A stretch of 64,000 nucleotides of DNA, from positions 88,506 to 152,505 of the forward strand of contig CAZXSR010000003.1 in NCBI GenBank assembly GCA_964643315.1, read 5' to 3'. This DNA comes from an uncultured Ferruginibacter sp. GTDB lineage: Bacteria; Bacteroidota; Bacteroidia; Chitinophagales; Chitinophagaceae. A program made the position numbers and the translations under genes. Under the pieces are notes generated by a model. That model worked only from the letters and a program-made list of their open reading frames with translations, did no database searches and was not told the origin of the DNA. Positions 5,589-60,860 of this stretch are shown here, piece after piece; the first letter of the stretch is position 1, and the number at the start of each line of letters is the position of its first letter.

Positions 5589-7190
5589 ATGAATTTCCTT
5601 AAAAAGCATCCCTTTATCCGTTTATGTATTGCATGGGCATTTGGCATTTTTGTTGGCAACTTGAACCTTTGTTCATTAAAGTTTACGCAAATAATATTGG
5701 CTTGCATCTTATCACTACTGCTATTTTCTACTTTTTCAGGCGTAAAGAACGCATTCAAATACAGAATTGTAACCGGGCTAATGATTTGGCTGTTGATGGC
5801 AATGGGTGGCATATTGACCATACAAAAACAAGATATTCGCCATGATGCAAATTGGATTGGATACGATGTTAAAAAGGCAAAGGCATTTTGGGTAGAGATT
5901 ACGGAAACACCTATTCAACGAAAAAAAACCAAACGATTTAAGGTAAAATTATTAGAGTACAATGATGGGGAGAAGTGGAAAAAGGCAACCGGCAATCTGT
6001 TATTATTCATTCAATTATCAAGCAAAGTAGATAGTCTTGAAATTGGAAAGAAATTTATTTGTTTTCAAAAAATCAAATTGCTCAAAGATGATTCCATATT
6101 TGCATTAGGTTATCAAGATTATTTAGCCAGGCAGGGTATTTATCACACCGCTTATATTCGTAATAACGATTATTTTATTTGCACAAATAATGATCATCCT
6201 CCCATTCAAAATCTGATACAACAACTGCAAAAGAAAACAATCGGCTTACTGAGAGGAGCCATTCACGACAGCTCATCCTTCGCTTTGGCAGAGGCCTTGC
6301 TGATTGGCTATCGTAATGACATGGACAAGTTGCAGGTAAAAATATATACGGATGCCGGCATTGTACATATCATTGCCATTTCGGGAATGCATCTGGGATT
6401 GCTGTTTATTTCCCTGTCATGGATATTGGAATTGATTCCTTTTTTACGACAGTACAACTGGATAAAAGCCGTATTGATATTATCATTTCTTTGGACATTC
6501 ACCTTACTATGTGGTGCATCTCCCTCTGTTTTGCGCAGTGCGGTCATGTATACCTTTATCATAATTGGAAAAGCAATGAAACGGGATATTATGCTCCATA
6601 ACATGCTGGCCGTTTCTGCATTTGTACTACTTTGTTATAACCCTTATTTATTATGGGATATTGGATTCCAATTAAGTTATTTAGCCATTATTGGAATTGT
6701 ATGGTTACAAAAACCCATTTACCATTTGGTTAAAGCCAAAAGCAGGTTGTTTGATAAAATCTGGGAAATGATGAGCATCACGATAGCCGCACAAATCATG
6801 ACACTGCCAATATGTCTGTATTATTTTCATCAATTTCCAAACTATTTTTTACCAAGTAATCTATTGGCTGTGCCATTATCTACTGTGATATTGTTCATGG
6901 AGATAGCGCTCATTGTTTTAGCGCCAATTCATTTTTTTTATGAAAATTTAGGTTGGGTCACAGAGAAATTATTAATCGCATTTGAAAAAAGCATGCTGTT
7001 TTTTTCAAAACTGCCTGGAGCAGTTACACATGATATATTTGCCAATGCATTAACAACAATATTTTTATTTGCGATGATTATTTTTTTAGGATGGGGATTG
7101 ATTAATAAGCAAAAACAATTTTTTTGGAGTAGCATTATCTGCTCATTGATTTTTTGCATTGTGTACGCTTTGCATTCATCTTTGTTGTGA
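5589..7190 (+). CDS. comEC: ComEC/Rec2 family competence membrane protein (DUF4131 + Competence domains; no C-terminal nuclease domain)
   Basis: HIIAISGMHL, SPSVLRSAVM, DIGFQLSY, ITIAAQIMTLP, SNLLAVP motifs. Confidence 0.88.
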   Translation: MNFLKKHPFIRLCIAWAFGIFVGNLNLCSLKFTQIILACILSLLLFSTFSGVKNAFKYRIVTGLMIWLLMAMGGILTIQKQDIRHDANWIGYDVKKAKAFWVEITETPIQRKKTKRFKVKLLEYNDGEKWKKATGNLLLFIQLSSKVDSLEIGKKFICFQKIKLLKDDSIFALGYQDYLARQGIYHTAYIRNNDYFICTNNDHPPIQNLIQQLQKKTIGLLRGAIHDSSSFALAEALLIGYRNDMDKLQVKIYTDAGIVHIIAISGMHLGLLFISLSWILELIPFLRQYNWIKAVLILSFLWTFTLLCGASPSVLRSAVMYTFIIIGKAMKRDIMLHNMLAVSAFVLLCYNPYLLWDIGFQLSYLAIIGIVWLQKPIYHLVKAKSRLFDKIWEMMSITIAAQIMTLPICLYYFHQFPNYFLPSNLLAVPLSTVILFMEIALIVLAPIHFFYENLGWVTEKLLIAFEKSMLFFSKLPGAVTHDIFANALTTIFLFAMIIFLGWGLINKQKQFFWSSIICSLIFCIVYALHSSLL

Positions 7191-29673: not shown

Positions 29674-32600
29674 ATGAAAATACAAGTATTAGTGAGTCGC
29701 CTCATCATGGCAATGGTGCTGTTATTTTTATCAGCCCTTTTTGCTTTTGGGCAGCGACCAACAACAAATTTTTCTGCTACTCCAGCAGCAGGATGTGCCC
29801 CTTTACTGGTAAATTTTACAGACCAATCTACGGGTAATCCAACATCCTGGAGATGGACCCTCGGTAATGGCAGTCAATCTAGCAACCGCAATCCATCTGC
29901 CGTTTACATGAACCCCGGAACTTACACTGTTAAGCTGGTTGCCACCAATGCTGCAGGGTCAGACTCCTTGATACGTACAAACTATATTACAGTTTATTCG
30001 AAGCCAAACATACAGTTCTCGGCATCCAATAATAACGGTTGTGGCCCACTTACTGTATCATTTACAGACAATAGCTCGGCAGGCTCGGGAACAATTCAAA
30101 CTCGCCAATGGGATTTTGGTGATGGAACTTTCAGTACCGAAGCAAACCCGGTTCATACATATACAAGCCAGGGTAACTTCAATGTTTCTCTTATGGTATC
30201 AAATTCATTTGGTTGCTCGGCTTCTTCAACCCAAAATGGATATGTTCAAGTCATACCCAAACCAACAATATCATTCTCAAGCAACAATACATCATCTTGC
30301 TCATTCCCATTTGATGCCACATTCCAAAATCAAACTACGGCATCCGGAGCGATCAGTTTCTTATGGCAGTTTGGAGATGGCACCTCATCAACGGAGATCA
30401 ATCCTACACACAGCTACAGAAATCCTGGCTCATATAGTGTAAAATTGAAAGCAACAGGTGTAGGTGGTTGCAGCGATTCTCTCAGCAGAAATAACTATAT
30501 AAACATACAAAACAATGTTGTTTCATTTACAGCTCCGGATCGGGCTTGTGTAAATAGTTTAATACAGCTTACCGGTACTTCAAGCCCAACTCCCAGCTCA
30601 ACACTATGGAGATTTAGCAATGGAACAACAACCAATGACCCAAGTCCGGTTGTTTCCTTCAGCACACCCGGAATATTCTATATCACCAAAATTGACAATT
30701 TTGGAGGATGTATGGACTCCGTAACCCAAAGTATTGAAATTGTACAAAAACCCGTTTCAAATTTTGCAGGAACAAATTTATCTTCTTGTCGGGCTCCACT
30801 TGTAACAAGTTTTACATCAAATACTAGCAACACCACAAGTTATTTGTGGAATTTTGGTGATGGCCAAACATCTAATGGCGCAAACCCACAACATACTTAC
30901 ACGCAGGAGGGCTCATATGATGTTTCACTTATTGCGGGCAACAGTGGTGGTTGCTTTGATACACTTATAAGAACAGCGTACGTAACAATACAGTTTCCTG
31001 TTGTGAGTGTGACACACTTTCCGCAGCCCGGTTGTGTTCCATTGACCGATACTTTTAGTCTTTCTGTTACAGGAGGAGATGCCGTAGCTTCTTATCTATG
31101 GAATTTTGGTGATGGTGGCACATCAACCGAATCAACACCTACACACACTTTTAGCCAAAGAGGCAAGTATGATATTCAGGTAATAATAAGAACCGCAAGT
31201 GGCTGTACAGATACTGCATTTTACCCGCAGGCAGTAAAAGCGGGTAATAAACCTAACCCGTCTTTTGAAGCAGTAACCACAACAACATGTGCTTCTGAAT
31301 CAGTAACATTCAATAACTTAACGCCTGCAGCTGATTCCGCTGATAACTGGCTTTGGATATTTGGAGACAATACGTTCTCTTCAGCAATGTCACCAAGTCA
31401 TCTATTTATTGATACCGGTATTTTTGATATTCAATTACTGGCGTTCGATAATGGATGCCCATCCGATACTTTTATACGCCCACAGTACATAACCGTGTTG
31501 GCACCAATAGCAAAATTTTCTGTCATCAATAATTGTGCGCAAAGACTAACCAAAAAATTCAACGACTTATCTATTGGTGCGGAAAGCTGGCTTTGGGACT
31601 TCGGCGACGGTATCACATCAGATGAACAAAGCCCCGAGCATACCTACAACAGTTCAGGCAGATACACAGTAAAACTAACGGTAAACAACGCAACAAATAA
31701 TTGCAGTGCGACAAAAACATTTAATATTCTGGTTTCCAATGAGGTGCCTGATTTTGAGGCAAATCCCTTGGCCATTTGCCGTACCAACTCCACTAATTTC
31801 AGGGTTACGAATTTTACTCCCGACTATTTTAGTGCATTTACCTGGAGATTCGGAGATGGTATTACCGGATCTGATACAGCAGTTACAAAAATCTACTATA
31901 CAACCGGAATTTATACAGTAAAACTGATGAGCAGAGACAAAAATGGATGTAAGGATACTATAACCAAAAACAATTACATACAGGTCAATGGACCCAAATC
32001 TTTGTTCTCTGCAACAAATACCAATAATTGCATCAATAGTCTGGTAGCATTTACGGATAATTCCACGGGAGATGGTAGAAATGCCATCGTTCAGAGAATA
32101 TGGAGTTGGGGTGATGGGTCAAGTGATACCACAATCAATCAAACTTCTCTTTCACATCAATATCTCACTAATGGTAACTATACTGTCAGGTTGAGAATAA
32201 TTGACGCTTTTGGTTGTGAAAATATTTTGAGTCGTCAAAACTATATCAGAATCAATTCACCGGCCGCTAATTTTTACACGGCTGATACATTGGCCTGTGT
32301 CAACTCAAACATCAATTTAATAAACAGTACAACCAGCCCTAATGTAAGCTTCAGTTGGAATTTTGGAGATGGTCGTACTTCAAATGTCGCAGCACCTGTA
32401 TTGTCTTACCCCTCTCAGGGCACCTACTCAATTACATTGTATGTTACCAATAGCATTGGATGTACAGATTCACTACGCAGGGATAATTACATTAAAGTAA
32501 AAAATCCGATTGCATCATACACTGCAAATACCTATGAGGGCAATTGTCCTCCTCTTGTTGTAAACTTCAACAACACATCACAAAACTATTTGTCACAACT

Positions 32601-34494
32601 TTGGGATTTTGGTGATGGTACTTCTACAAATACCGATAACCCGTCTCACTTTTATGCGATATCCGGAAATTATACTGCAAAAGTAACAGTTACCGGTCCC
32701 GGTGGATGTACGGATACCTATCAACATGCAATTATTGTACATGGGCCGCGTGGCACGCTCAATTACTCAAATTCTCCCGGTTGTACTCCATTGTTAAAAA
32801 CCTTACAGGCTAACGTAATCAATACTACTGAAATGGTATGGGATTTCAACGATGGGAATACTTTGCAGAGCATGGTAGCTACACAAAACCATACATACAC
32901 CACAGAAGGTGTTTACCTTCCAAAACTATTATTAAAGGATGCCACAGGTTGTATCGTTCCGGTAAGCGGAAGGGACTCTATTCGTGTAAATAATTTGCAT
33001 CCTGCATTTGAAATGGGGAATCATAGTTTTTGTAGATCCGGCAATGTTGTATTCAATAATACGAGTGTTGCTACAGATGCAATTTCATCTTACTTGTGGA
33101 ATTTTGGAGACGGCACCACATCATCAGAACAACATCCAACACACGTATACGCAAACCCTGGTAATTATATTCCCACTTTGACTGTGCAAACAGTAACCGG
33201 TTGTTCTGGAACTTACCAATCATCAGACACTGTAACAATATTAAGTATCCCTGACGCCCAGATCTTACAGAGTGCCACGGAAGGTTGTGAGGGCATTGGT
33301 GTTGTATTCAACGGAAGTGTGAATGGATTGGCTGCAGCTTCTGTGCTTTGGAGTTGGGACTTTGGAAACGGTAACACATCCACTGTTCAAAATCCGCCTG
33401 CTCAAACATTCCGTACAGTTGGAAACAATCGTATTACAGCTACAGTTACTAATGCAGCAGGTTGCTCAAATTCCTTAGAAGCTTTTGTGATGGTGCATCC
33501 AATTCCAACAGTGGATGCAGGACCGGATACTTTTTCTTGTCGTATGATCGGTATTCGATTGCAGGCAACCGGTGCTGATATCTATAATTGGTCACCAGCA
33601 ATAGGATTATCTTGTATAAATTGTGCCAATCCGCTTGCTAACCCAACAACCGGCTTATATTATCGTGTAACTGGGAAAACCAATTTTGGTTGCCAGAACA
33701 TCGACTCTGTTTATGTAAGTGTAATAAACCCTTTCACATTATCTGTCAGTCCTCCAGATTCTGTTTGTAAAGGAAATTCAAAACAATTATCTGCTTCAGG
33801 CGGTTACAGATATACTTGGAGCCCAAATACAGGTTTGGATAATCCAAACATTGCCAATCCAACAGCCACGCCTGATGTTACAACCATATATAATGTGGTA
33901 GCAACAGATGAAAAAGCCTGTTTCACTAAATCCAAAGTAGTTCCAATAACAGTGCACAATAACCCTACAGTAGATCTGGATGAGGAAACTACAGTAACTG
34001 TTGGCAGAACGATTGATCTGATTCCCAGAGTTTCAAGAGATGTAATAGATGCCCGTTGGTCACCAACGACATCTATATTCAGAACTGATTTTCCCGGCAT
34101 CACAGTAAAGCCATCAGAAACTACCACATTTACGATAGATGTATTCAATAGTCATCGTTGTACTGCTTCGGACAGAATCACTGTGAATGTAATGTGTAAC
34201 AACTCAAATATGTTTATACCAAACAGCTTTTCTCCTAATGGTGATGGTATGAACGATATTTTCTATCCAAGGGGTACAGGTATTTTTACGATAAAGAGCA
34301 TGCGTATTTTTTCGAGATGGGGCGAAGTAATATACCAAAGGAATAATTTTAAAGCCAATGACCCCACAAAAGGGTGGGATGGATTGTTCAAAGGACAAAA
34401 AATGAATGCAGATGCCTTTGTTTACACGGTAGAAGTGGTATGTGAAAATAATACAGAGATGACTTTCAAAGGAACTGTAACACTTATTCGCTAG
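29674..34494 (+). CDS. PKD-repeat surface protein with gliding-motility (CHU_C, T9SS type B) C-terminal domain
   Basis: 15 WxFGDG-type PKD motifs counted; C-terminal FIPNSFSPNGDGMND...SRWGE...GWDG...GTVTLIR; start set at MKIQVL (ORF extends to 29602). Confidence 0.92.
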   Translation: MKIQVLVSRLIMAMVLLFLSALFAFGQRPTTNFSATPAAGCAPLLVNFTDQSTGNPTSWRWTLGNGSQSSNRNPSAVYMNPGTYTVKLVATNAAGSDSLIRTNYITVYSKPNIQFSASNNNGCGPLTVSFTDNSSAGSGTIQTRQWDFGDGTFSTEANPVHTYTSQGNFNVSLMVSNSFGCSASSTQNGYVQVIPKPTISFSSNNTSSCSFPFDATFQNQTTASGAISFLWQFGDGTSSTEINPTHSYRNPGSYSVKLKATGVGGCSDSLSRNNYINIQNNVVSFTAPDRACVNSLIQLTGTSSPTPSSTLWRFSNGTTTNDPSPVVSFSTPGIFYITKIDNFGGCMDSVTQSIEIVQKPVSNFAGTNLSSCRAPLVTSFTSNTSNTTSYLWNFGDGQTSNGANPQHTYTQEGSYDVSLIAGNSGGCFDTLIRTAYVTIQFPVVSVTHFPQPGCVPLTDTFSLSVTGGDAVASYLWNFGDGGTSTESTPTHTFSQRGKYDIQVIIRTASGCTDTAFYPQAVKAGNKPNPSFEAVTTTTCASESVTFNNLTPAADSADNWLWIFGDNTFSSAMSPSHLFIDTGIFDIQLLAFDNGCPSDTFIRPQYITVLAPIAKFSVINNCAQRLTKKFNDLSIGAESWLWDFGDGITSDEQSPEHTYNSSGRYTVKLTVNNATNNCSATKTFNILVSNEVPDFEANPLAICRTNSTNFRVTNFTPDYFSAFTWRFGDGITGSDTAVTKIYYTTGIYTVKLMSRDKNGCKDTITKNNYIQVNGPKSLFSATNTNNCINSLVAFTDNSTGDGRNAIVQRIWSWGDGSSDTTINQTSLSHQYLTNGNYTVRLRIIDAFGCENILSRQNYIRINSPAANFYTADTLACVNSNINLINSTTSPNVSFSWNFGDGRTSNVAAPVLSYPSQGTYSITLYVTNSIGCTDSLRRDNYIKVKNPIASYTANTYEGNCPPLVVNFNNTSQNYLSQLWDFGDGTSTNTDNPSHFYAISGNYTAKVTVTGPGGCTDTYQHAIIVHGPRGTLNYSNSPGCTPLLKTLQANVINTTEMVWDFNDGNTLQSMVATQNHTYTTEGVYLPKLLLKDATGCIVPVSGRDSIRVNNLHPAFEMGNHSFCRSGNVVFNNTSVATDAISSYLWNFGDGTTSSEQHPTHVYANPGNYIPTLTVQTVTGCSGTYQSSDTVTILSIPDAQILQSATEGCEGIGVVFNGSVNGLAAASVLWSWDFGNGNTSTVQNPPAQTFRTVGNNRITATVTNAAGCSNSLEAFVMVHPIPTVDAGPDTFSCRMIGIRLQATGADIYNWSPAIGLSCINCANPLANPTTGLYYRVTGKTNFGCQNIDSVYVSVINPFTLSVSPPDSVCKGNSKQLSASGGYRYTWSPNTGLDNPNIANPTATPDVTTIYNVVATDEKACFTKSKVVPITVHNNPTVDLDEETTVTVGRTIDLIPRVSRDVIDARWSPTTSIFRTDFPGITVKPSETTTFTIDVFNSHRCTASDRITVNVMCNNSNMFIPNSFSPNGDGMNDIFYPRGTGIFTIKSMRIFSRWGEVIYQRNNFKANDPTKGWDGLFKGQKMNADAFVYTVEVVCENNTEMTFKGTVTLIR

Positions 34495-34519: not shown

Positions 34520-34556
34520 ATACGGGCTTGTACGTAGTACAGGCCCGTATTTTTTT
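34520..34556 (+). terminator. Intrinsic terminator between PKD/CHU_C gene and porP/sprF
   Basis: ATACGGGCTTGTAC-GTA-GTACAGGCCCGTAT plus T tract. Confidence 0.85.
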
Positions 34557-34661
34557 GCATCAAATGAAATTTTCTTAAAAAAAAGTTAAGTAGGGTAAAA
34601 TAAAGTTTTCCATGGGTCGTTTTTAATGTACCGTATCACAAACGATCTAAAATCCAAACCC

Positions 34662-35690
34662 ATGAAAAACGTAACCACTCTAGTATTGGCATTTACCGCT
34701 ATGTTCGGTACACAAGCCACAAAGTCTCAAGACGTTCATTTCTCCCAAATGTTTGAAACTCCAGTTCTGAGAAATCCTGCGATTTCCGGATTATTCAACG
34801 GTGATGTTCGTGTTCAAATGGTACACCGTTCTCAGTGGAGCACAATCGAATCTGCTTTTCAAACTACATCTGTAAGTGCTGAAATAAAAAAGAAAATCGG
34901 AAACGGTGATGACTTTATCACAATCGGTGGTCAGTTGTTAAATGACAAGGCTGGCTCTGCAGCTTTAACTACCACTCAGGTTTCTCCTACAATTAATTAT
35001 CATAAGTCAGTAAGCGCTGAGAGAAACAGCTACCTGTCTCTTGGTTTCATGGCTGGTGTTGTTCAACGTAAAATTGACAGAAGTAAAATGACTACCAACA
35101 ACCAATTCGACGGAGATCGTTTCAACAGTTCTCTTGCTGATGGTGAAACAAATTTAATTCCTTCATACACTTATTTTGATGGTAGTGTTGGAATGAGCTT
35201 CAGCTCTCAGTTGGGTGAAAACGAGCAGAACAACTTTTATGTTGGTGCAGCTTACCACCACTTCAACAAAGCAAAAAAGAATTCTTTTTATCAATCAATG
35301 GATAATCCTGTTATTTCTAAAAAAGTATTTTCCGGTGGTGTTCACATGGAACTTGCCAACAACTCATCTATCACTGTTCAGTCTGATTACAGCGTTCAAG
35401 GTGCCAGCAAAGAAATCGTTTTGGGAGCTATGTATACCATGAACCTCGACAATAACGAAACTACCAAATACCGTTTTCACTTTGGATCTTATGTAAGATG
35501 GAACGATGCAATCATCCCTGTTGCTAAAATTGAGACTCGTGGTATGTCAATCGCTGCAAGCTATGATGCCAACATTTCTCAATTGAAAAACTATAGCAGA
35601 GGAAACGGTGGATTTGAAATCTCTGTTACTTACCAAAAAGCAAAAAAGGTAAACAGCAGTCTGGACGCTGTAAAATGTCCAAAATTTTAA
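34662..35690 (+). CDS. PorP/SprF family T9SS outer-membrane protein
   Basis: QDVHFSQ...NPAISG, HRSQW, LNDKAG, SYD...GGFEISV; start set at MKNVTT. Confidence 0.92.
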   Translation: MKNVTTLVLAFTAMFGTQATKSQDVHFSQMFETPVLRNPAISGLFNGDVRVQMVHRSQWSTIESAFQTTSVSAEIKKKIGNGDDFITIGGQLLNDKAGSAALTTTQVSPTINYHKSVSAERNSYLSLGFMAGVVQRKIDRSKMTTNNQFDGDRFNSSLADGETNLIPSYTYFDGSVGMSFSSQLGENEQNNFYVGAAYHHFNKAKKNSFYQSMDNPVISKKVFSGGVHMELANNSSITVQSDYSVQGASKEIVLGAMYTMNLDNNETTKYRFHFGSYVRWNDAIIPVAKIETRGMSIAASYDANISQLKNYSRGNGGFEISVTYQKAKKVNSSLDAVKCPKF

Positions 35691-44296: not shown

Positions 44297-45706
44297 TTAG
44301 CGGAACATTTTTCCGGGATTGAGGATATGATTGGGGTCGAATGCTTTTTTGACGGCTTTCATTAAAGAGAGCTCCGTTTCAGAAAATACGATGTCCATGT
44401 ATTCCTGTTGAATGAGTCCGATACCATGTTCGCCGCTGATGGTTCCGCCCAAAGACTTCACAAGTTCAAACAACGCTCTTAACGCAGGGATGACATCTTG
44501 GTTATTGAGACTGTATTTGCTTCCTTCTTTTTTAATTCGTACATGCAAATTGCCATCGCCTGCATGTCCGTAACAAACCACATCGAACTGATATTTTTTT
44601 CCGAGTTCTTTTACTCCTTTGATTAGTTTGGGGAGTTCGGCGCGTGGAACGACGGTATCTTCTTCGATGGTATATCCCACTGACTTTACCGCTTCGGCTA
44701 CCCTTCTTCTGAGTTTCCACAACTCTGCTTTTTGGGTAGCATCATCTGCAAAAAATACTTCACCGCAATCATAAGCCGTGAGCAATTCGGCAATAGATTC
44801 CATTTCATTCATGAGCGTATCCAAATGGTTGCCATCTACCTCAATGATCAAATGCGCGGCCATTTCATCGGTTACAGGAACGACAGAGCTGTCGACCATT
44901 TTACTCACAATTTTCAAAGCATCAATTTCTACAAGTTCCAGTGCGCTGGGCACAAAACCTGCCCTGAAGATGGCACTTACTGCTTCGCCGGCTTTTTCAA
45001 GATTATTGAAAGGCACAAGCATCAGCAAATCATATTTTGGATGCGGGATGAGTTTGAGTACAATTTTGGTAACAATACCTAAGGTACCTTCGCTTCCCAC
45101 CATTAATTGCGTGAGGTTATATCCGGTCGCATTTTTCAACACATTGGAGCCTGTCCAAATGATATTGCCATCAGGCAAAACCACTTGCAAGTTGAGTACA
45201 TAATCTTTTACGACGCCGTATTTGACTGCCTTAGGTCCACCGCTGTTTTCAGCGATGTTGCCACCGATGAAGCAGGTGCCACGGCTGCTGGGATCGGGCG
45301 GATAGAAAAGGGATTTTTCTTTTACGGCATTTTGCAAAACTTCAGTAATAACACCGGGCTCAACGGTGACTTGAAGATTTCTTTCATCAATTTCAAGAAT
45401 TTCATTCATTCTTTCCACTGAAAGCAAGACGCCTCCATGCACAGGTAATGCCCCACCGCTTAACCCTGTTCCCCCACCTCGTGGTGTCACTGGAATGTGA
45501 TGAGTATTGCAATATGACAAAATAGCGCCAATTTGTTCGGGAGTTCTGGGCTTTACTATGATATCCGGAGGAAAATGCAGATTTTCGGTTTCATCATGAG
45601 CATAATTATTGATCTGCTCTTCATCTGTATAAACAAATGAATCCCCGACAACTGATTTAAGGTGATGCAGCAATGCAGTAAAATCATACGTCTTGAAATC
45701 AGGCAT
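44297..45706 (-). CDS. FAD-linked oxidase (GlcD / D-lactate dehydrogenase-like)
   Basis: PRGGGTGLSGG, YPPDPSS, IGGNIAENSGG, GSEGTLGIVT, HAGDGNLH, SGEHGIG, NPGK; start set at MPDFKT. Confidence 0.92.
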   Translation of the reverse strand: MPDFKTYDFTALLHHLKSVVGDSFVYTDEEQINNYAHDETENLHFPPDIIVKPRTPEQIGAILSYCNTHHIPVTPRGGGTGLSGGALPVHGGVLLSVERMNEILEIDERNLQVTVEPGVITEVLQNAVKEKSLFYPPDPSSRGTCFIGGNIAENSGGPKAVKYGVVKDYVLNLQVVLPDGNIIWTGSNVLKNATGYNLTQLMVGSEGTLGIVTKIVLKLIPHPKYDLLMLVPFNNLEKAGEAVSAIFRAGFVPSALELVEIDALKIVSKMVDSSVVPVTDEMAAHLIIEVDGNHLDTLMNEMESIAELLTAYDCGEVFFADDATQKAELWKLRRRVAEAVKSVGYTIEEDTVVPRAELPKLIKGVKELGKKYQFDVVCYGHAGDGNLHVRIKKEGSKYSLNNQDVIPALRALFELVKSLGGTISGEHGIGLIQQEYMDIVFSETELSLMKAVKKAFDPNHILNPGKMFR

Positions 45707-45776
45707 GGATAGAGCGGGTTTTGGACAAATTTCGTAAAAAAATCTGAAAGGGGATCTGTAATAAAAGACAGAATTC

Positions 45777-46826
45777 TTAAAAATGAGGGCAAGAAAACTC
45801 TCTGGAAGGTTTCTCACCAATATTGTTCAAACTCATGATACTGAGCTCGGATGCACCTGCTCCATTATTAAATGTACGAAGAGGTGAATTTGTGATATCG
45901 TAAGAGAAATTGAGCGCTATTCTACCAAATTGGAGTCCTAAGGAAGGAATCATCGCATCGTTTTTTCTTATAAAAAATCCAGCATGCATAGATGCGTCTT
46001 TTTGCTTACTGATTTGTCGGCGAACTTGTGCGCCTGCTGTCCAGCTTGCTGCGCCTGCCTGAGAGATCGCCAGTGCAGATGGTTGTATGATTGTATTGTT
46101 CCCGATTTTTATAATCGCATTCAGGTACCCTGTATGTTTATGATTAACACGTTCATTTATTGTACTGGAAAAAAAAGTTTCCTTGGGCTTAAGCGCATTT
46201 GCCAAGGAATAACCCGCACTTATGTATATATCTTGACTGGCAAAATAAGAATAATTTAATCCCACCTGAACATCGGGATACGAAATTGAAGTTGTTGAAA
46301 ATACAGAGCCGGTCGGCAAACTTCCATCAAAAAAATGACCGTTGAATTGATCAGGAAAAGTGAGCTTGGAAGGATCAACCGATCTTGTCACCCAGCCCAA
46401 ATTACAACCTGCGCTCAGCAGGCTGCTTTGCCCAAGCATTTGGTGATAAGCCAAAGAGATATATGCTTTGGTAGTACGTAAATTACCGCTTCCTGCAACA
46501 TCGCTCAATAAAAATCCACCAATTCCTGCCCAGGCAAATTCAAATTGGTTCTGTAATATTGCGGCATCCCCATAAGCAGAAAAAGAACGATATGGATTGG
46601 TTATTAAGTTAACAAACTGACGACGATAATTTAATCCAAACCGGTAATCCGCATCCAGAAGAAAACCGGTGTTCGCAGGGTTTGCAAATAATGGTGTATT
46701 ATAGAATTGGGAAAAATGAATATCCTGTGAAGCTCCTGATTTTGCAAGCATTAAAAAACATGAGAGAACAACTGATTTAATGAGTTGCAAACTTAATACG
46801 GGTGATATGTTTGATTTCATCCTCAT
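45777..46826 (-). CDS. PorP/SprF family T9SS outer-membrane protein
   Basis: QDIHFSQFYNTPLFANPANTG, NYRRQ, SYDIT...GASELS; overlaps stop of upstream CHU_C gene. Confidence 0.92.
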   Translation of the reverse strand: MRMKSNISPVLSLQLIKSVVLSCFLMLAKSGASQDIHFSQFYNTPLFANPANTGFLLDADYRFGLNYRRQFVNLITNPYRSFSAYGDAAILQNQFEFAWAGIGGFLLSDVAGSGNLRTTKAYISLAYHQMLGQSSLLSAGCNLGWVTRSVDPSKLTFPDQFNGHFFDGSLPTGSVFSTTSISYPDVQVGLNYSYFASQDIYISAGYSLANALKPKETFFSSTINERVNHKHTGYLNAIIKIGNNTIIQPSALAISQAGAASWTAGAQVRRQISKQKDASMHAGFFIRKNDAMIPSLGLQFGRIALNFSYDITNSPLRTFNNGAGASELSIMSLNNIGEKPSREFSCPHF

Positions 46827-49800
46827 CGAAGTAAAGTTATATCTCCAGTTTTTCTAAGAAAAGTTCCATCCGAATAATTTACATCCAGTGTATAAGTATA
46901 TACATCCAAAGCCTGCAGTCTGCCATTCAGGGTACCATCCCATCCATTTTTGATAGAGGTAGATCTGAAGATCTGTTGACCCCATCGATTATAAATTCGC
47001 CAATCCATTTTTTGTATGCCAAAACCTTTTACATAAATAGTGTTATTGACTGTCTGTCCTGGGGTAAAAGCGTTGGGCACATCCAACACGGGCTCTATAA
47101 GGGCCCGAACCTGAAGCGGGAAAGTATCTTTACAGCCATATTGGTTAATGGCAATCAGCTGAGCATCAAAAGTACCTGTACCAATGTATTGATGCGTGGG
47201 ATTTATTTGATTGGAGCTGTCGCCATCTCCAAATTGCCATATATAATTAATGGCCCCAAGACTTGTATTGGTAAATTGAACAGGTGTATTCACAACAGGT
47301 GGATTTGGCAACCAGGTAGCCGAGGCCTGAGGTTTATCTGAAACTATGATAGAAAAAGGAGGAGACACATCCGTAACATTACAGGTATTGGGATCTGTGG
47401 CAGTAAGTGTAACTGTATACGTACCTGGAGTATTAAACGTGTAACTGAATGGGTCAGCAGTAGATGAAACTCCATTAGACAAATCCCAACGAATATCTGT
47501 TGTGCCGGACAGATTTACAAAGCCGGCAGTATAAGGTACACATCCATAGGAGGATGTATTGAATTCGGCTTTAAGGATAGGTCGTACTCTTAATTGGATT
47601 GACTTTTTAACAGGCGCATTGCAGAATCGTGTATCATTTAGCGTAAGTGTAATAGTATATGTTCCGGTATCTGCAAAAGTATGTGATACATTTCCGCCTG
47701 ATGTAATGGTTGGACTACCATCGCCAAAGTCCCAGGTGAAACTGTTTGCCTGAAAACTTGTTCCCAGGATGGAGAATGATTGATTGATGAAATCAAAATC
47801 CAAACCGGTGCAAGGCAGTCGCTTTACTGCATTAAAAGCCATTTGCACAGAATCATTTCCAGCTTTGATTTGTATGTACGCAGTGTCACGAATATTACAA
47901 GTGGAAGAGTCTTCAGTAATAACACGAACGGTATAGGTTTGCACGTTGGCATAAGAAGTTTGTGTGCTAAAGATCGGGGCGCGTGTTGTGTCCTTTAACC
48001 CATTTCCAAAATCCCAGTACATGGTCCTCCCTTTTTGAAGAGTGTCAGTAAATCTTACAATGAATGGTACGCAGGCAGAAGTGTCGTTCTTTATTGCATT
48101 GATGGATGGCTGGATACTTGCGGCCACTCCTGTAAAGTCCATCTCAATTTTTACCGCTGCCTGATTGCAGTTTGCGCTTCTGTTTACACGGCTCCATACT
48201 CCTGTTGTGGTTGGAAAAGTGGCACCACCTCCGCAATTGGCACACATGGCCTGATAAATAATGCCGTTGGTTGAAAATCGACTTGTTCCACCATCAACGT
48301 GATCACTTTCGCCACCGAACTGCCCAAAGTGTGTAGAAAATAAGATTCTTGTCGCATCTTTTTCAAATACGATGAAATAAAAATCCTGCCCATCTGCGGC
48401 AGGTATGCCGGGCAATGGATTTACTTCCGGTAATCCATTTGTATTGCCTGTTCCGTAGTTTTCCTGGTTGATGCCGCCGCCCCATCCGGAGATGTATACA
48501 TTTTCGCATCGATCTACCGAAAATGCTACAGGTGAAATATTAGGAAGCGATGAGCCCGTGCCAAATACAGTGGAGTAAACGTATTGAGAAAGATCAGGTT
48601 TTAGTTTAGCTACAAATTGCGAGCTGCCGGCAATGTTATATGGAGGTGATGATAAAGGCAACACAGGCCATGATCCTGTGGTAGTACCAACTACATAAGG
48701 AAAGCCTTTTTTATCACATTTCACTCCATAGACGACATCGATATTGCCGGTTCCGAGAAAAGTCGTTTTATTGATGGACGTGAAATCATTTTTGATAGAT
48801 GTAATAAAACCATCGGCTACACCACCCTGATAATTTGGAGAAATCACATTGATATTATTCCCTGGTAAATTGTTGCTGGTGGTTCCTCCGCCAATGAAAA
48901 GATCGTTGGTAGTTGAACTGATATCGCAAACAAAACAGGCATCATCTCCACTACCTCCAAAAAAACTTCCATAAGCATAGACAGATAGATTAGCATTGAA
49001 TTTTAAAACAAGCCCATCTTGTATGCCACCACCAAAACTGCCATTTGTATTTAATGGAATTCCGACAACTGGAAAATCAGGGGATTGAGTGCAAGAAGCA
49101 AGGATTATGTTTGATGATTCATCCAGTATAACTTCGCTTCTGGCATCATCGCCATAATATCTTCTTAGGCGGTCCGGGCCGTTGGGGGCAGCATATTTGG
49201 AACGAATGTTTACACCATCATTTGAGGATCCGCCTATTCTTACAGAACCAACTAATCCGGTACCGTTGGCATTTAATTTAGTGATAAAAATATCATACCC
49301 ACCCAAAGGACCTATGCTTCGGGTTGTTGGAAAATTAGAGGAAGAAGTACGACCAGTAATGATGAGATTACCCTGTGCATCACAAATCATGCTGTGTGGC
49401 TGTTCATTTCTGCTTCCTCCCAAATAGGTTGCATACAATCTGTTGAAACCATTTGGAGAAAATTTAAAAATTGCCATGTCATGACCCGGCAATTCCAAAT
49501 ATTGGTTTTGATTGGGTGGAGGAAAGAATGAAATTTCATCTTCTCCCCCATTGTAAGTTGTTTGAAAAGCCCCGGGAGAAACGGGATAACCACCACTAAA
49601 TACTACGCCGCCTGCAAAAAAACTGCCATCGGGGCCTGGTGTTGCTGTGTAACCCCAATTATCGGCGTTACTACCGGTAAATGAAGAAAAACGGATAGAA
49701 GGATCAATAATCAAAGTTCTTTTGATGTCATAAGCGCCTAGTTGAAAGTACACTTTCTTTCCACTAAGCACATACTGACATTTGATTTCGTTTCGATTAC

Positions 49801-50416
49801 CCGATTCATCTGTTTGATAAGCATAAGGTTTTAATTCACGAACTTCCCCGACGGATGTTTGTATGATCAATTCTTTATTTCGAATAGCTAATTGATTTAC
49901 ACCATCATACTCCATTACAATAGCATTGCTGTTAGCACCTGGATGAAGAATGAAATCATACTTAAGATTATCTCCTGAGGAATAGTATTGAACATCCACA
50001 TTTGTATAAATGTTTTTATAGACGACTTGTTGAAACATACGACAAGCAGTGGCCCATTTGGATGAATCATTTCCAAGAAAATAGTTATTGTATCCCGATT
50101 GCTGTTTGAAAGATTGAATGCCTGCAACTGAATTAGATGAAACAAGTTTCATACGATACATACAGGATTTCAATGTGATTGACTTATTTAACTCCTTTAC
50201 ATTACCATGAATAAGAGACCCGAGTTGACGATAATCGGCGGTATCATGAAGCACCACAGAAAAACCCTGGTTTTCGAGATAAAAACTTCCGTATTGAAGT
50301 TCACCTTTGTATCGAATAATTGAATTCCATTGACCTTTATTTTCAATGAAATCAATTTGAGCAAATGACTGTTTACAGAATAACACAAAGAGGAGTATAA
50401 TTGGCAAACATCGCAT
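46823..50416 (-). CDS. T9SS type B cargo: FIENKGQW N-terminal domain, SBBP-like propeller, PKD repeats, CHU_C
   Basis: FIENKGQW, YATYLGGS, G.T.S.NFP repeats, WDFGNG/WDFGDG PKD motifs, VPNAFTP...NRWG...GWDG...GDITLLR. Confidence 0.9.
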   Translation of the reverse strand: MRCLPIILLFVLFCKQSFAQIDFIENKGQWNSIIRYKGELQYGSFYLENQGFSVVLHDTADYRQLGSLIHGNVKELNKSITLKSCMYRMKLVSSNSVAGIQSFKQQSGYNNYFLGNDSSKWATACRMFQQVVYKNIYTNVDVQYYSSGDNLKYDFILHPGANSNAIVMEYDGVNQLAIRNKELIIQTSVGEVRELKPYAYQTDESGNRNEIKCQYVLSGKKVYFQLGAYDIKRTLIIDPSIRFSSFTGSNADNWGYTATPGPDGSFFAGGVVFSGGYPVSPGAFQTTYNGGEDEISFFPPPNQNQYLELPGHDMAIFKFSPNGFNRLYATYLGGSRNEQPHSMICDAQGNLIITGRTSSSNFPTTRSIGPLGGYDIFITKLNANGTGLVGSVRIGGSSNDGVNIRSKYAAPNGPDRLRRYYGDDARSEVILDESSNIILASCTQSPDFPVVGIPLNTNGSFGGGIQDGLVLKFNANLSVYAYGSFFGGSGDDACFVCDISSTTNDLFIGGGTTSNNLPGNNINVISPNYQGGVADGFITSIKNDFTSINKTTFLGTGNIDVVYGVKCDKKGFPYVVGTTTGSWPVLPLSSPPYNIAGSSQFVAKLKPDLSQYVYSTVFGTGSSLPNISPVAFSVDRCENVYISGWGGGINQENYGTGNTNGLPEVNPLPGIPAADGQDFYFIVFEKDATRILFSTHFGQFGGESDHVDGGTSRFSTNGIIYQAMCANCGGGATFPTTTGVWSRVNRSANCNQAAVKIEMDFTGVAASIQPSINAIKNDTSACVPFIVRFTDTLQKGRTMYWDFGNGLKDTTRAPIFSTQTSYANVQTYTVRVITEDSSTCNIRDTAYIQIKAGNDSVQMAFNAVKRLPCTGLDFDFINQSFSILGTSFQANSFTWDFGDGSPTITSGGNVSHTFADTGTYTITLTLNDTRFCNAPVKKSIQLRVRPILKAEFNTSSYGCVPYTAGFVNLSGTTDIRWDLSNGVSSTADPFSYTFNTPGTYTVTLTATDPNTCNVTDVSPPFSIIVSDKPQASATWLPNPPVVNTPVQFTNTSLGAINYIWQFGDGDSSNQINPTHQYIGTGTFDAQLIAINQYGCKDTFPLQVRALIEPVLDVPNAFTPGQTVNNTIYVKGFGIQKMDWRIYNRWGQQIFRSTSIKNGWDGTLNGRLQALDVYTYTLDVNYSDGTFLRKTGDITLLR

Positions 50417-52784: not shown

Positions 52785-55700
52785 TTAGTGCTTAACAACC
52801 AATTTAGATGTAGTTGTCTGGCCTCCTTTGGTTATTTTAACCAGGCAAGTTTGACTTTGAATATCACTTACAACCATCGATACAGTTGTTCTTGAAGCAT
52901 TCAATACTACTTTTTGTGTCTTCAAAAGACGACCTGATAAATCGTACAAGTTGATGATGGCAGTTTCTCCGGCATTACCCTCTACAAAAACATTTGTTGA
53001 AGTAGTTGCAGGGTTCGGGAACATGTTTGCAGCAATCATGCTTGACAATCTGCCCCCTTGTGTAGTTGGCTGAGTAGCTGTACAAGTCAAGTTACCATTA
53101 TCAACCCCAACACCATCATAGTTTAAGTTGATATTTGCCAAAGCAACACCCAATTGAGCATTCGTGAATGAAGTTGCACAACCACCAATCAATTTGTTTG
53201 CTTCAGCAATGATTTGATTTACAGTCATTCCTATGAAGGGAGCGCTCTGATAATACATGCTTCCCAACACATTGTCACCAGATGCAAATGAAGCGTTTGC
53301 TGCATCAAAACCAACACTCAAAGTTGCAGCCAATAACTGACCAACCAGGTTGCTGTTAAATACTGCATTACTTGGGTTGGTTAGTGTACCATTAGGTAAC
53401 AAGTAGTTATTGGTGCCGGCAGGTAACCAGTTGGTAATTGCTTGTGGAGTGGTGAATTTAACCAGATTACTGCCACAACCTAAAGTAATACCATTAGGGA
53501 ATGAAGATGCAAAATTAGCATGCAAATACACTTTTGCAGGGTTATTGGTAGCACCCCATCCACCTTGGGAGAAAGTTGTTAAAGGCACACAATTTGCAGT
53601 ACCCGCAATATAAATCACAGCATAAGAAGTATCGCACATGCTGTTGCAGTCGCATATCTTGTAGTAGAATGTATCCAATCCTGTAAATCCGTTAGCCGGC
53701 GTGTAGGTATAGTCTCCATTAGACTGTACTGTAACTGTACCATGATGTGGATTTGAAACCAATGACCACATATTATTTGGACACTGTGGATTTGGTGTAT
53801 CGTTATTTTTCAGAGTTCCATTAACTGGTGTATTAGGCGGTGTTGTAGTTGAATCCGGAGAAGCAACAGGTCCGTTGATACAACGAATTGTATCAATTGC
53901 AGATGATCCTGTACAACCTTTTGAGTCTACGATTGCTACATACACTGCACTATTTGGACAAAGCTCAGAAGCTGTACTTGTTGTTTGAGAAGCTGCAACC
54001 GATCCATTGATTGTCCAAGTGTAAGTATATGGAGCAGTTCCTCCTGATGTTACAGACACCGTAGCTGAACCATCACAGATAGCATCTCCACAACGACTAT
54101 CAGGTGTGGTGTTCAAGTTTAATTGCATAGACTCAGGTTCAACAATGGTTTCAGAGCCATTTTGTGAACAACCGTTAGCATCAGTAATTGTCCATTCGTA
54201 TGTACCTGCAGACAAGTTCAAATATTTATCCGGGCTTGATGTAGGATTAGAAACAGATCCATTGAAGTTCAATGAGTAAGGTGTAACACCACCAGCAAAA
54301 CTAATTACTACAGCACCATTGCTTCCTCTTGCACAAGTGATATCGTTATGTATGCTTGAAGCAACCAAAGCCTCAGGTTCTGTAATTTCAACAGTTCCGG
54401 TTTTAACACATCCATTCGCATCGACAATGGTCCAATTGTATGATCCGACAGACAAATTATTGTATGCTGCAGGAGAAGTTTGACTAACTAAACCAGGTAT
54501 AGAAGGAAGTGCGACATTAGTTGTGATGACTGCTGTGTTGAAATCTACATCAGTCAATAAAGTTTCTGATGAATTACCGAATAAAGTTTCTCCAAAGGTG
54601 AATACATATCCTTTAGGAGATCCATTACTGATATCGATGAATACATCTCCTTCTTCAGCTTGGGGAGCAGGAGGAGCAGGTGTATTATTCACAAAGCTAA
54701 CAGAGTAAGGTCCAGTACCACCTTCGAAGGTAAGTGTAACGCTTCCGTTGTTTCCACCATTACAAGAAACATTAGTATGCTCTTCATTAGCAGATATTTC
54801 AGTAGGCTCTTCAACTGATTCAGAACCTGATTGAGAACATCCGTTGGCATCTGTAACTGTCCAGCTGTAAGAACCCGCAGAAAGTGAACTGTAAGATACA
54901 GGAGACGTTTGTTCGGAAGCTTCACCTCCGTTAAAACTCACTGTGTAAGGTGCAGTACCGCCACTAAAGCTAACAGATACAGACCCTTCAGTACCACCAT
55001 GACATGCGTTATTGGTATGATCATCTGTAGCAACTAAAGCAGATGGCTCTTCTACTGACTCAGAACCTGATTGAGTACATCCGTTAGCATCTGTAACTGT
55101 CCAGCTGTAAGAACCTGCAGACAATGAGCTATATAAAGCAGGTGAAGTTTGAGCAGTGGCCTCTCCACCATTGAAACTAACTGTGTAAGGAGCTGTACCA
55201 CCGCTGAAGCTGAGTGATACCGATCCGTCAGTACCACCATTACATTTTACATTAGCATGATCATCTGATGCTTCTAATACAGATGGTTCGCCTACTGTTT
55301 CTGAACCTGATTTCGTACAACCATTTGCATCAGTTACAACCCAACTGTATGAACCAGCTGACAATGAGCTATAAACAGCAGGTGAAGTTTGTGCAACAGC
55401 AGCTCCACCATTGAAAGCAACGGTGTATGGTGCAGTACCGCCATTGAAGCTAACAGTTACAGATCCGTCAGAACCGCGGTTACATTTTACATCAGCATGA
55501 TCATCTGAAACTGAAAGTTCAGAAGGTTGTGTAATTGTGTTGGTGCAAGTTGTTACTTTACCAACTGCGTCTGTTATGGTAACAGTGTAGGTGCCAGGAG
55601 CAAGATTAGAAACTGAACTAACATTTCCTGCACCTTGTATGTTCCAAGAATAAGTGTAAGGACAAGTTCCTGAAGTAACAGAAACATTTATAGAACCATT

Positions 55701-59041: not shown

Positions 59042-59434
59042 CTAATTGTCTTGACTACATTTTTGGCTTTGCACTTCTTTGCTAAATGTCCTAAACATTC
59101 TTTTAAAAAATCTTTTCGATGGCCGGAGGATTATCTCATACTTGAATTTCCATACAATAATTAAAATGAATAACAATAACAAAGAAGAAAGTGACAAACT
59201 TAATCCGATACTATTAGTCCATTCCAACATATAAAATCCAAACGATAAAATTGCCAATAGTAAAAGGATGAATAAAAACAAACTAAAAAGAATCAAGAAA
59301 TATACATGCGCAAAGAATAAAGAAATCCAATCAATAATTTCTGATCTCAATAATTGCGATCTTAATGAAATTATCTCTCGTAAATCCTTCCACACGTCCT
59401 TCCACTCATCCTTAAAACGGGATATCACACTCAT
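59042..59434 (-). CDS. Two-TM membrane protein, phage-holin-like/YqjE-like
   Basis: Two hydrophobic segments; TGATG overlap with ytxH-like gene; family inferred from size and context. Confidence 0.6.
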   Translation of the reverse strand: MSVISRFKDEWKDVWKDLREIISLRSQLLRSEIIDWISLFFAHVYFLILFSLFLFILLLLAILSFGFYMLEWTNSIGLSLSLSSLLLLFILIIVWKFKYEIILRPSKRFFKRMFRTFSKEVQSQKCSQDN

Positions 59435-59670
59435 CAGGATCTTTCATTGATGGCTTCCAGTCTTTCTTTGATTCCTTCTTTGATGGCAGTAATATTATCT
59501 CTACTTTTTTGCCAAGAGTCTTTCACGTTTTCAGAAAAGCGATTTCCACCTTCCCTTATTTTTTTCCTGGTTTCACTTCCCTTATCAGGCGCAAATAACA
59601 CACCTAATATCGTTCCCACTGCAGCACTTCCCAATGCTACCCACAACAATTGTTTTGTTTGCTTTTCCAT
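59434..59670 (-). CDS. YtxH-domain protein
   Basis: GTILGVLFAPDKGSETRKKI signature. Confidence 0.9.
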   Translation of the reverse strand: MEKQTKQLLWVALGSAAVGTILGVLFAPDKGSETRKKIREGGNRFSENVKDSWQKSRDNITAIKEGIKERLEAINERS

Positions 59671-59756
59671 ATATTTTTTTTAGACCAGCAATTTAATTTT
59701 TGAATGCAAAAAATAAAATGACTTAAAGTTGTCTTTAGAGTGACTTTATACAAAAT

Positions 59757-59813
59757 GTAAAGCCGGATAGAAATCCGGCTCGCATCTATTATCCAATATC
59801 CTATGAAAAACCT
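59757..59813 (-). ncRNA. Candidate small RNA with anti-start-codon 5' seed
   Basis: TAGATTTG -7 box (59818-59825), then AGGTTTTTCATAGGATATTGGATAATAGATGCG, then perfect AGCCGGAT-TTCT-ATCCGGCT hairpin and TTTACATTTT. Confidence 0.55.
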
Positions 59814-59897
59814 GATGCAAATCTATTGTGTAAAAAAAGTAATAAATATGATCATTGTAGTACATCAAACTGATTATAATCACTTTTTATTTTTTGG

Positions 59898-60860
59898 CTA
59901 ATTTTTCCTCCTGAAATATTTTCTGAAAAAAACAGATTGTTTTAGGGCATCCAATATATCATTGATCTGTTTTGTTGCCTTATTTGCTTCTTTGACCATC
60001 TCCCTGGCTTCTTCTCTGGCTGATGTATCTCTCCACAAATATGGCAACATTCCATTTCCAGTATCAATTGTTTTTTTGAGGGAAACAGCTATTTGTCTAA
60101 CTGAATCTGTGAGTTGTGTGATATGCTCTCCGGTCGTTTGATATGTATTAAGTAATTTATGAATTCCCTGAGTCATTATGGAATCATAAAGCAAAAATCC
60201 CAACACACCTTTACCCTGATTTATCTGATGTTTCCATTTTCTCATTTCCAGTATCATTATTAATGCCTGCTCAGCAGTTTTTTTTAATGAAATGCTTGAA
60301 TGCTGTAATTGATGAACAATTATGGTGTCATTCAACAATGCCTGCATAAAAGTACTGGTATCTAAAGCCGCAGAAACACGTTGAATGTGAAAGGAAATAT
60401 CCTTAAAATTCAAATTTGTTTTACTGAATGTCTGAAGCATCTCGTCTGTATCCACCGGTTTTTTTGAAAACAGCAATGCTTTATCTTTTGCAGGCATAGC
60501 AGCCCCCCTAAGTGTTTGTATATTGATAATCTTGTTACCTACAAGACCGTCGGTACCGATAGAAACCAATGCGTTTTCGCGTATAATTCCATCGAGGCTT
60601 GCATCCAATCGCATGATTACTTCAATCAAGGTGTCATTGATAACCTCAATATCTTCAACCGTTCCTGCATCTATGCCAGCGAAACGAACATTATTTCCTT
60701 TTTTTAATCCCTGAATATTTTCAAATCTTGCTCGCAAATGAAAACTTCTTCCCATCAGGTGCTTATTTTTTCCAATCATGTACAACATGATAAGCAAAAA
60801 AGAAATACCTACTGTAACGAACAATCCCAACTGTATGTGTTTCAATCCTTCTTTTGCCAT
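59898..60860 (-). CDS. mlaD: MlaD/MCE family protein
   Basis: N-terminal TM, GLKKGNNVRFAGIDAGTV, SIGTDGLVG, helical C-terminus. Confidence 0.9.
   Translation of the reverse strand: MAKEGLKHIQLGLFVTVGISFLLIMLYMIGKNKHLMGRSFHLRARFENIQGLKKGNNVRFAGIDAGTVEDIEVINDTLIEVIMRLDASLDGIIRENALVSIGTDGLVGNKIINIQTLRGAAMPAKDKALLFSKKPVDTDEMLQTFSKTNLNFKDISFHIQRVSAALDTSTFMQALLNDTIIVHQLQHSSISLKKTAEQALIMILEMRKWKHQINQGKGVLGFLLYDSIMTQGIHKLLNTYQTTGEHITQLTDSVRQIAVSLKKTIDTGNGMLPYLWRDTSAREEAREMVKEANKATKQINDILDALKQSVFFRKYFRRKN

Follow-up and report, generated by a model that had tools for sequence, protein, structure and literature searches.

Enterobacterial envelope-stress small RNAs (sRNAs) such as RybB, MicA, MicC, and MicL combine a short 5' seed with a terminator, repress mRNAs of outer-membrane proteins at or near their start codon, and depend on Hfq and sigma-E. 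Bacteroidota lack Hfq to our knowledge, and we know of post-transcriptional control in this phylum almost only from gut Bacteroides. Here, we analyzed a 64-kb stretch of DNA with 39% G+C (hereafter "the window") from an uncultured Ferruginibacter sp. of the Chitinophagaceae. In this window, the region between an mlaD-like and a ytxH-like gene appears to hold an independent minus-strand gene for a trans-acting sRNA of ca. 62 nt, and the seed of this sRNA is complementary to the start region of a porP/sprF-like gene of a type IX secretion system (T9SS).

The closest described systems are the sRNAs FopS and GibS of Bacteroides thetaiotaomicron (RF04319; PMC11697453, PMC7366714). FopS has 14 paralogues in this organism, is conserved within the Bacteroidaceae, and is expressed from sigma-ABfr promoters (PMC11697453). 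Its 5' seed is followed by one terminator and pairs beside the start codon of susC mRNAs, so that translation is not initiated, an effect antagonized by RbpB, while GibS shares the same 5' GUUUUUCAU seed, the architecture, and the translation block by pairing beside start codons (PMC11697453). In the class Flavobacteriia, Rfp18 and other sRNAs of Flavobacterium psychrophilum have mRNAs of secreted or T9SS-dependent proteins as predicted targets (PMC9723704), though Rfp18 pairs via its third stem-loop and has no detectable sequence similarity to the sRNA studied here. Searches of the literature and of Rfam 15 revealed no described sRNA for Chitinophagia or Chitinophagaceae, and the literature search found none shown to control type IX secretion.

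A candidate sRNA gene beside the mla operon

The spacer between mlaD and ytxH that contains the candidate gene is 227 nt long. Its elements and the two neighboring genes are:

59752..59813 (−): predicted sRNA of ca. 62 nt with 5' single-stranded seed, linker, terminator hairpin, and U-rich tail (predicted ends)
59789..59812 (−): seed GGUUUUUCAUAGGAUAUUGGAUAA, whose plus-strand complement is the stretch 59791-59811 singled out by the original prediction
59760..59781 (−): terminator hairpin GAGCCGGAU-UUCU-AUCCGGCUU, from a terminator scan and covariation
59818..59825 (−): putative Bacteroidota −7 box TAGATTTG (consensus TAnnTTTG), 6 nt upstream of the seed
59848..59851 (−): invariant TCAT, 40 nt upstream of GUUUUUCA (GTTTTTCA), probably the −33 promoter region
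59898..60860 (−): mlaD-like gene (PF02470), adjacent to the sRNA gene but outside the RNA itself
59434..59670 (−): ytxH-like gene on the other side of the sRNA spacer

Several of these features recall FopS and GibS, i.e., sRNAs of ca. 65-70 nt that are likewise found in Bacteroidota, follow a sigma-ABfr-type −7 box, and consist of a single-stranded 5' seed and one Rho-independent terminator. The −7 box of the candidate gene is recognized by sequence only, with TAnnTTTG being the promoter consensus of this phylum (PMC11697453). The 5' end of the candidate shows the same GUUUUUCAU-G, with the letters AGGUUUUUCAUAGG compared to the FopS consensus GUGUUUUUCAUgG. FopS targets the outer-membrane susC mRNAs beside their start codon, and the outer-membrane sprF-like gene is predicted to be targeted here in the same way. 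However, past the first ca. 11 nt there is no sequence relationship to FopS in either the seed (UAGGAUAUUGGAUAA) or the hairpin. FopS is also reported as a Bacteroidaceae sRNA with 12-15 copies per genome and targets in polysaccharide utilization loci, whereas the candidate belongs to Chitinophagaceae-like freshwater lineages with 1-2 copies per locus, always beside mla, and T9SS genes are predicted as its targets; the window showed no susC gene complementary to the seed.

No Rfam 15 family covers the candidate at the gathering threshold. The FopS model RF04319 aligns end to end with the window copy (model positions 1-71; 59750-59813, −) at 15.6 bits (E 1.6) compared to a gathering threshold of 56, and two tandem copies from another locus (L005, see below) score 22.3 and 17.5 bits among equally weak matches to MicC and SorY. 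Membership in the FopS family is not supported by these scores, while a distant kinship or a convergence with the R1 seed of FopS/GibS is possible. The RybB/MicA/MicC/MicL group is similar in its 5' seed, terminator, and outer-membrane targets, and the mla/ytxH neighborhood of the candidate is tied to the envelope as well; the match to MicC (16-23 bits compared to a gathering score of 90) is noise, and there is no sequence relationship.

Relatives of the window locus were reached via a protein database and contig look-ups, with GTDB genomes and scans of JGI metagenomes offering only 34-39% MlaD identity. We collected family members with a strict regular expression and a covariance model (a looser, fuzzy expression gave only noise), which yielded nine copies in eight loci from lineages with 37-73% MlaD identity:

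Window: 59752-59851 (−)
L003: 1198-1308 (−)
L004: 3679-3790
L005: 4004-4116 and 4131-4243
L011: 3204-3314
L012: 2404-2514
L013: 1371-1481
L015: 1368-1478

The window has a single copy in its 64 kb, and each locus carries one or two. A covariance model built from these copies (R1) recovered only the nine copies in 210 kb with 73.8-93.8 bits, followed by a next-best hit of 17.5 bits. In four metagenome loci with 51-73% MlaD identity, a block of 72 nt (ATTTGCATCAGGTTTTTCATAGGATATTGGATAATAGATGCGAGCCGGATTTCTATCCGGCTTTACATTTT) is essentially invariant while its flanks have diverged. Within the family, the seed follows the pattern GGUUUUUCA(N0-2)UAGGAUAUUGGAU with a hairpin and a U-rich tail behind it in all nine copies. 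It is identical in the window, L003, L011, L012, L013, and L015 except for the two 3'-terminal bases (UU in L003), and the seeds of L004 (a Ferruginibacter metagenome-assembled genome [MAG] whose variant has one extra U) and L005 differ by insertions of 1-2 nt only. This invariance of the seed is set against variation in linker and stem. All nine pairs of the hairpin are formed in each of eight sequences (100% paired), three of the nine pairs are changed on both sides, and the resulting covariation score was reached by none of 500 shuffles.

Upstream of the seed, a TAnnTTTG-type −7 box is found at a distance of 6 nt in 9/9 copies (TACATTTG, TAGTTTTG, TAGATTTG, GATATTTG). It is perfect in most of them (TAGATTTG, TACATTTG, TAGTTTTG), with near matches in L003, L004, and L015, and TCAT stands at the same distance of 40 nt from the seed in 9/9 copies. 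The gene lies beside the mla operon in every locus that we found, but its placement there is not fixed. In the most distant one (L003, a MAG with 37% MlaD identity), the same seed is encoded on the opposite strand and on the other side of the operon, upstream of mlaE. In L005, a Chitinophagaceae MAG locus, the gene is duplicated in tandem, and each copy comes with a separate TAnnTTTG box and terminator. Metagenome contigs of four further runs carry the sRNA core in still other contexts.

All copies thus appear to have a promoter and a terminator of their own, independent of the neighboring genes. Because the promoter box is conserved, the seed invariant, the terminator supported by covariation, and the contexts independent (i.e., divergent orientation and tandem duplication), we consider it highly probable that 59813..59752 is a real, independently transcribed sRNA gene of ca. 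62 nt, with both ends predicted. A 32-aa open reading frame on the plus strand (59803..59901, MKNLMQ...) had been another candidate source of the start-like sequence. It was rejected because conservation is at the nucleotide level and the frame itself is not kept, with a stop after seven codons in L011.

Complementarity to the porP/sprF start region

The seed is the reverse complement of a sequence that itself looks like a start region (UUAUCCAAUAUCCU-AUG-AAAAACC). The original prediction had matched this stretch to the porP/sprF start, and its coordinates, letters, and alignment are all accurate. Positions 34652-34670 read ATCCAAACCCATGAAAAAC and positions 59791-59811 read ATCCAATATCCTATGAAAAAC, and the two align with 18 identities, one mismatch, and two gaps, including a 9-nt block ATGAAAAAC that spans the porP ATG at 34662. 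The site and its target are:

34651..34671 (+): predicted site of sRNA pairing with the porP/sprF mRNA, −11 to +9 relative to the AUG (34662)
34652-34657: helix 1 of the predicted duplex, AUCCAA with UUGGAU of the sRNA
34659-34660: helix 2, CC with GG of the sRNA
34662-34670: helix 3, AUGAAAAAC with GUUUUUCAU of the sRNA
34662..35690 (+): putative target, a porP/sprF-like T9SS outer-membrane protein of 342 aa (PF11751)

The gene call made at the outset holds as well, with a match to PF11751 over profile positions 2-273 of 273 (134 bits compared to a cut-off of 22.3; E 9.8e-39). Since orthologues are 342-343 aa long, ATG 34662 should be the true start; from there, the protein begins with the signal-peptide-like MKNVTTLVLAF. 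The first ATG of the mechanically called reading frame (34626) was rejected on the basis of orthologue lengths and the N-terminus.

How unusual this match is depends on the way of scoring it. The count of matching positions on which the pairing was first proposed says little, because all 3452 of 3452 control segments of 148 nt reached at least 15 in a +1/−1/−1 alignment against some start region, and we rejected the alignment score as a significance test for this reason. Scoring a 148-nt RNA against 65-nt start regions with RNAduplex was dropped as well because it gave inflated full-length duplexes. The 148-nt "3' UTR" model of the RNA, under which porP ranked 7 of 46 with accessibility included, was rejected once the promoter had been recognized. 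The scoring used instead was based either on the 24-nt seed alone or on a refined RNA of 61 nt with accessibility, in whose fold the seed is mostly unpaired and costs 2.4 kcal/mol to open.

The 24-nt seed pairs with the porP start at −18.3 kcal/mol, which is rank 2 among 46 crude start regions. Full shuffles of the seed reached this value somewhere in the window in 5% of cases. When only the non-generic part of the seed was shuffled, 1.5% did as well against porP itself. With the refined RNA and accessibility, porP obtained a net −12.7 kcal/mol, the best value of any real start in the window and the third of ca. 2720 ATG contexts after two self-antisense hits had been set aside. The pairing thus stands out from the start regions of the window, and the claim that porP was the best target there holds among real starts when accessibility is counted. 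Overall, the match is moderately unusual in the window (p ~0.05) and not significant at genome scale on its own.

A target that matches the conserved seed core perfectly or nearly so (at least 12 nt) was not found in the window and the compared loci, other than the sRNA genes themselves. Two weaker matches were noted. At 6656-6666 (−), 11 nt (ATCCAATATCC) match the complement of the core perfectly and lie antisense to the gene at 5589..7190, probably by chance. Downstream of ytxH, the leader of a DUF2267 gene (58034-58486, −) holds AUCCAAUA, i.e., 8 nt of the seed complement, at −24 to −15, which is a weak match.

A conserved start motif and its possible explanations

The strongest competing explanation accepts the sRNA but not porP as its target. 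In that case, the match would be due to chance helped by the generic AUGAAAAA start of Met-Lys-Lys/Asn signal peptides, and the A/C-rich leader would be kept for another reason such as unstructured initiation without a Shine-Dalgarno sequence or a protein operator. In its favor, 14% of shuffles that keep the generic anti-start GGUUUUUCAU reach −18.3 kcal/mol or lower among the 46 start regions, and porP falls at the 1.7th percentile of ATG contexts when ranked by hybridization only. The decisive evidence in support of porP comes from comparison with orthologous loci.

Around the porP start, orthologues with 81-89% amino acid identity share an identical island of 30 nt (TAAAATCCAAACCCATGAAAAACGTAACCA), while the untranslated region (UTR) immediately before it and the codons immediately after it have diverged. 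The island stops where the complementarity stops, and the bcp start regions of the same loci have no comparable island, both of which speak against a leader kept for unrelated reasons. The motif is also kept at the porP starts of more distant orthologues, i.e., L020 (65% identity; AAAUCCAACCCCAUGAAAC), the Ferruginibacter locus L022 (57%; AAAUCCAAACCUAUUAUGAAAAAACC), and L024 (56%; CAUCCAAUCCCAUGAAAAAA), and is weaker in L019 and L023. All called start regions of four syntenic loci from other lineages were then scored with the seed; these loci all share the adjacency of porP with a T9SS cargo gene directly upstream. In 4/4 of them, the top-ranked start region was that of porP or of this cargo gene:

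L019: cargo −19.8 and porP −15.0 kcal/mol, ranks 1 and 2 of 14; cargo start motif at 4800-4822
L022: cargo −16.4 (at an ATG that precedes the called start by 33 nt) and porP −16.8 kcal/mol, porP rank 1 of 16; cargo start motif at 4982-5000
L023: cargo −19.7 and porP −11.3 kcal/mol, cargo rank 1 of 16; cargo start motif at 5032-5052
L024: cargo −14.9 and porP −16.4 kcal/mol, porP rank 1 and cargo rank 2 of 10; cargo start motif at 2000-2020

The null probability per ATG context (n = 5314) is 0.011 at −16.8 kcal/mol or lower, 0.0047 at −18.3 or lower, and 0.0015 at −19.7 or lower. The cargo start region reads AAAAGCCAAUCCCUAUG, with the motif AAAAG(U)CCAAUCC(C)UAUG, and engages UAGG and AUUGG of the seed, which are used only in part by the porP site. 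In L022, the in-frame ATG at 4994 carries the motif, and the called start of this PKD-repeat cargo gene at 5027 is probably 33 nt too far downstream. The cargo start of the window (ATG 29675) is without the motif and scores −12.1 kcal/mol. A search of the 225 kb compared for CCAA-N0-3-CC[CT]ATGAA on both strands found it only antisense to the sRNA genes and at porP or cargo starts.

It is hard for a chance match to account for a motif that sits on two different genes of one operon, ranks first in every syntenic locus tested, and has no other occurrence in the compared sequences besides the sRNA antisense. We regard the alternative without porP as a target as less likely, though it is the one that survives best. 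The original prediction had assumed both an sRNA and its target: the comparative evidence strongly supports the former, while the latter gains partial support from the rank in the window and the conservation of the motif. The case for porP as a target gains strength from its place as the best of the real starts in the window and from the persistence of the motif at porP/cargo starts over PorP identities of 56-89% while the UTR diverged, and the comparison makes it stronger than originally argued. Altogether, we put the probability that the porP site is a true target of the sRNA at roughly 0.5.

Several points weigh against this assignment. By seed hybridization alone, porP is equalled by a site at ca. 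45800-45840 (−) at the 5' end of a FAD-linked oxidase gene (44297..45820) with −19.0 kcal/mol. Judged by energy alone, ca. 4-10 start regions would equal porP by chance in a genome of 3500-4500 genes. The predicted duplex is broken by 1x1 and 3x1 internal loops and engages only 8 of the 15 most conserved positions of the seed core (UAGGAUAUUGGAUAA), and this incomplete pairing suggests that the primary target may sit elsewhere in the genome. The pairing of porP drops to −11 to −15 kcal/mol in L019, L020, and L023. Orthologous start regions share ancestry, and the four lineages consequently do not count as four separate trials. The motif pattern was drawn up once the sequences were known, and the motif could be conserved for translation initiation or for a protein operator instead. 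Joint presence of the sRNA and the start motif in one genome is shown for the window only. Its second sprF paralogue (45777..46826) lacks complementarity to the seed. Finally, the transcript, its ends, and its strand are themselves read from the DNA sequence. As for the FAD-linked oxidase gene, the site would lie just inside the coding region if an upstream ATG is the real start.

A different possibility is that porP translation in the clade of the window is controlled mainly in cis, with the leader segment GUUUUCCAUGGGU (34605-34617) pairing with porP's own start and the sRNA likeness reflecting a shared or copied element. The minimum free energy folds of the leaders of the window and L016 indeed contain such a helix (−15.3 and −14.7 kcal/mol; in the window, 34605-34617 with 34658-34670), and the L016 segment GUUUUUCAUAGG is identical to the sRNA 5' end at 12/12 positions. 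However, the helix is present only in the clade of the window and absent from L019, L020, L022, L023, and L024, and the z-scores of the folds are unremarkable (−1.1 and −1.6). The segment is also flanked by two conserved upstream blocks, possibly promoter elements, and may thus not be transcribed from the promoter of porP. We consider cis control as the main mechanism improbable, and it would in any case be compatible with regulation in trans.

Least probable of all is that the conserved block is merely the 3' UTR and terminator of mlaFED or a DNA-level protein site and the porP match meaningless: the block does sit immediately downstream of mlaD, on the strand of that gene, in the window and its nearest relatives, and its terminator would also end the mla transcript, but the L003 element is upstream of mlaE on the opposite strand, the tandem L005 copies each have their own box and terminator, the spacing between promoter box and seed is the same in every copy, the covariation of the stem argues for selection at the RNA level, and a plain terminator needs no invariant single-stranded stretch of 24 nt upstream. 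A variant in which the sRNA is derived from the 3' UTR of mlaFED was rejected due to the position and strand in L003 and the separate −7 box of each copy.

The sRNA would be transcribed from its Bacteroidota-type promoter and would comprise an unstructured 5' seed with a single intrinsic terminator behind it. If the porP site is indeed a target, the seed would pair with the sprF mRNA from −11 to +9 through the three helices, cover the start codon, and block 30S binding on an mRNA without a Shine-Dalgarno sequence, as is usual for mRNAs in this phylum (PMC6847099). Repressed translation, as demonstrated by experiment for FopS and susC, would leave less of the outer-membrane SprF-like protein that the cargo with type-B C-terminal domain (CTD) needs for secretion, and in other lineages the same seed may pair with the start region of the cargo gene, instead or additionally. 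We infer transcription, the RNA ends, pairing in the cell, and the repressive outcome from the features described above, and any link to envelope stress is a pure inference from the constant mla/ytxH neighborhood.

On balance, the candidate looks like an undescribed sRNA of the FopS type, i.e., with a 5' seed that occludes start regions, a conserved target in the T9SS cargo/SprF module is plausible, and RNA control of secretion at this module appears credible. More tentatively, these sRNAs may form an mla-linked family of Chitinophagaceae-like bacteria that is a distant relative or convergent twin of FopS/GibS with a lineage-specific core. It would be the first known riboregulator of a T9SS cargo/SprF module, shutting off an adhesin-like cargo together with its partner, perhaps in response to the state of the envelope.

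A real pairing would provide a defined RNA-target pair, with a seed of 24 nt on one side and two start regions of a single operon on the other. It would further be evidence that FopS-style occlusion of starts without a Shine-Dalgarno sequence reaches beyond the Bacteroidaceae and polysaccharide utilization, and it would point to a possible regulatory link between outer-membrane lipid homeostasis by mla and the secretion of surface adhesins. In the broadest case, there could be a phylum-wide class of GUUUUUCAU sRNAs that exploit the AUGAAAAA-type starts, lacking a Shine-Dalgarno sequence, of exported proteins. Should the pairing not be real, the family would still stand as a well-supported new non-coding RNA with other targets.

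The T9SS modules of the window

SprF-like proteins are dedicated partners of neighboring cargo proteins with a type-B CTD, as known from SprB and SprF. The porP gene of the window directly adjoins such a cargo gene upstream, and this synteny is shared by L019, L020, L022, L023, and L024. The remaining features of this module are:

29675..34494 (+): cargo gene encoding a PKD-repeat protein of 1600 aa (PKD_4, E 4e-189) with a CHU_C (type B) T9SS sorting domain (E 1.8e-13); ATG 29675 is the likely start
34520..34550 (+): intrinsic terminator separating the cargo gene from porP, a 14-bp stem followed by a T run

The two blocks upstream of porP mentioned above, AAAATAA (34597-34603) and CGTTTT (34618-34623), are invariant in seven loci with PorP identities of 64-89%. 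When orthologues with 62% and 57% identity are added, CGTTT and two A's of the AAAATAA block stay invariant. These blocks resemble promoter elements but not the TAnnTTTG housekeeping box, and a promoter for an alternative sigma factor is possible.

On the minus strand, a second T9SS module (45777-50416) is composed of a cargo gene with DUF7948, PKD, and CHU_C domains (46823..50416) and the second PorP/SprF paralogue (45777..46826). The start of this paralogue overlaps the cargo stop (ATGA), which suggests translational coupling. A protein of 1191 aa encoded nearby (52785-56360, −) has SprB repeats, cadherin-like and Big_9 domains, and a type-A Por_Secre_tail, and is a further T9SS cargo in this neighborhood.

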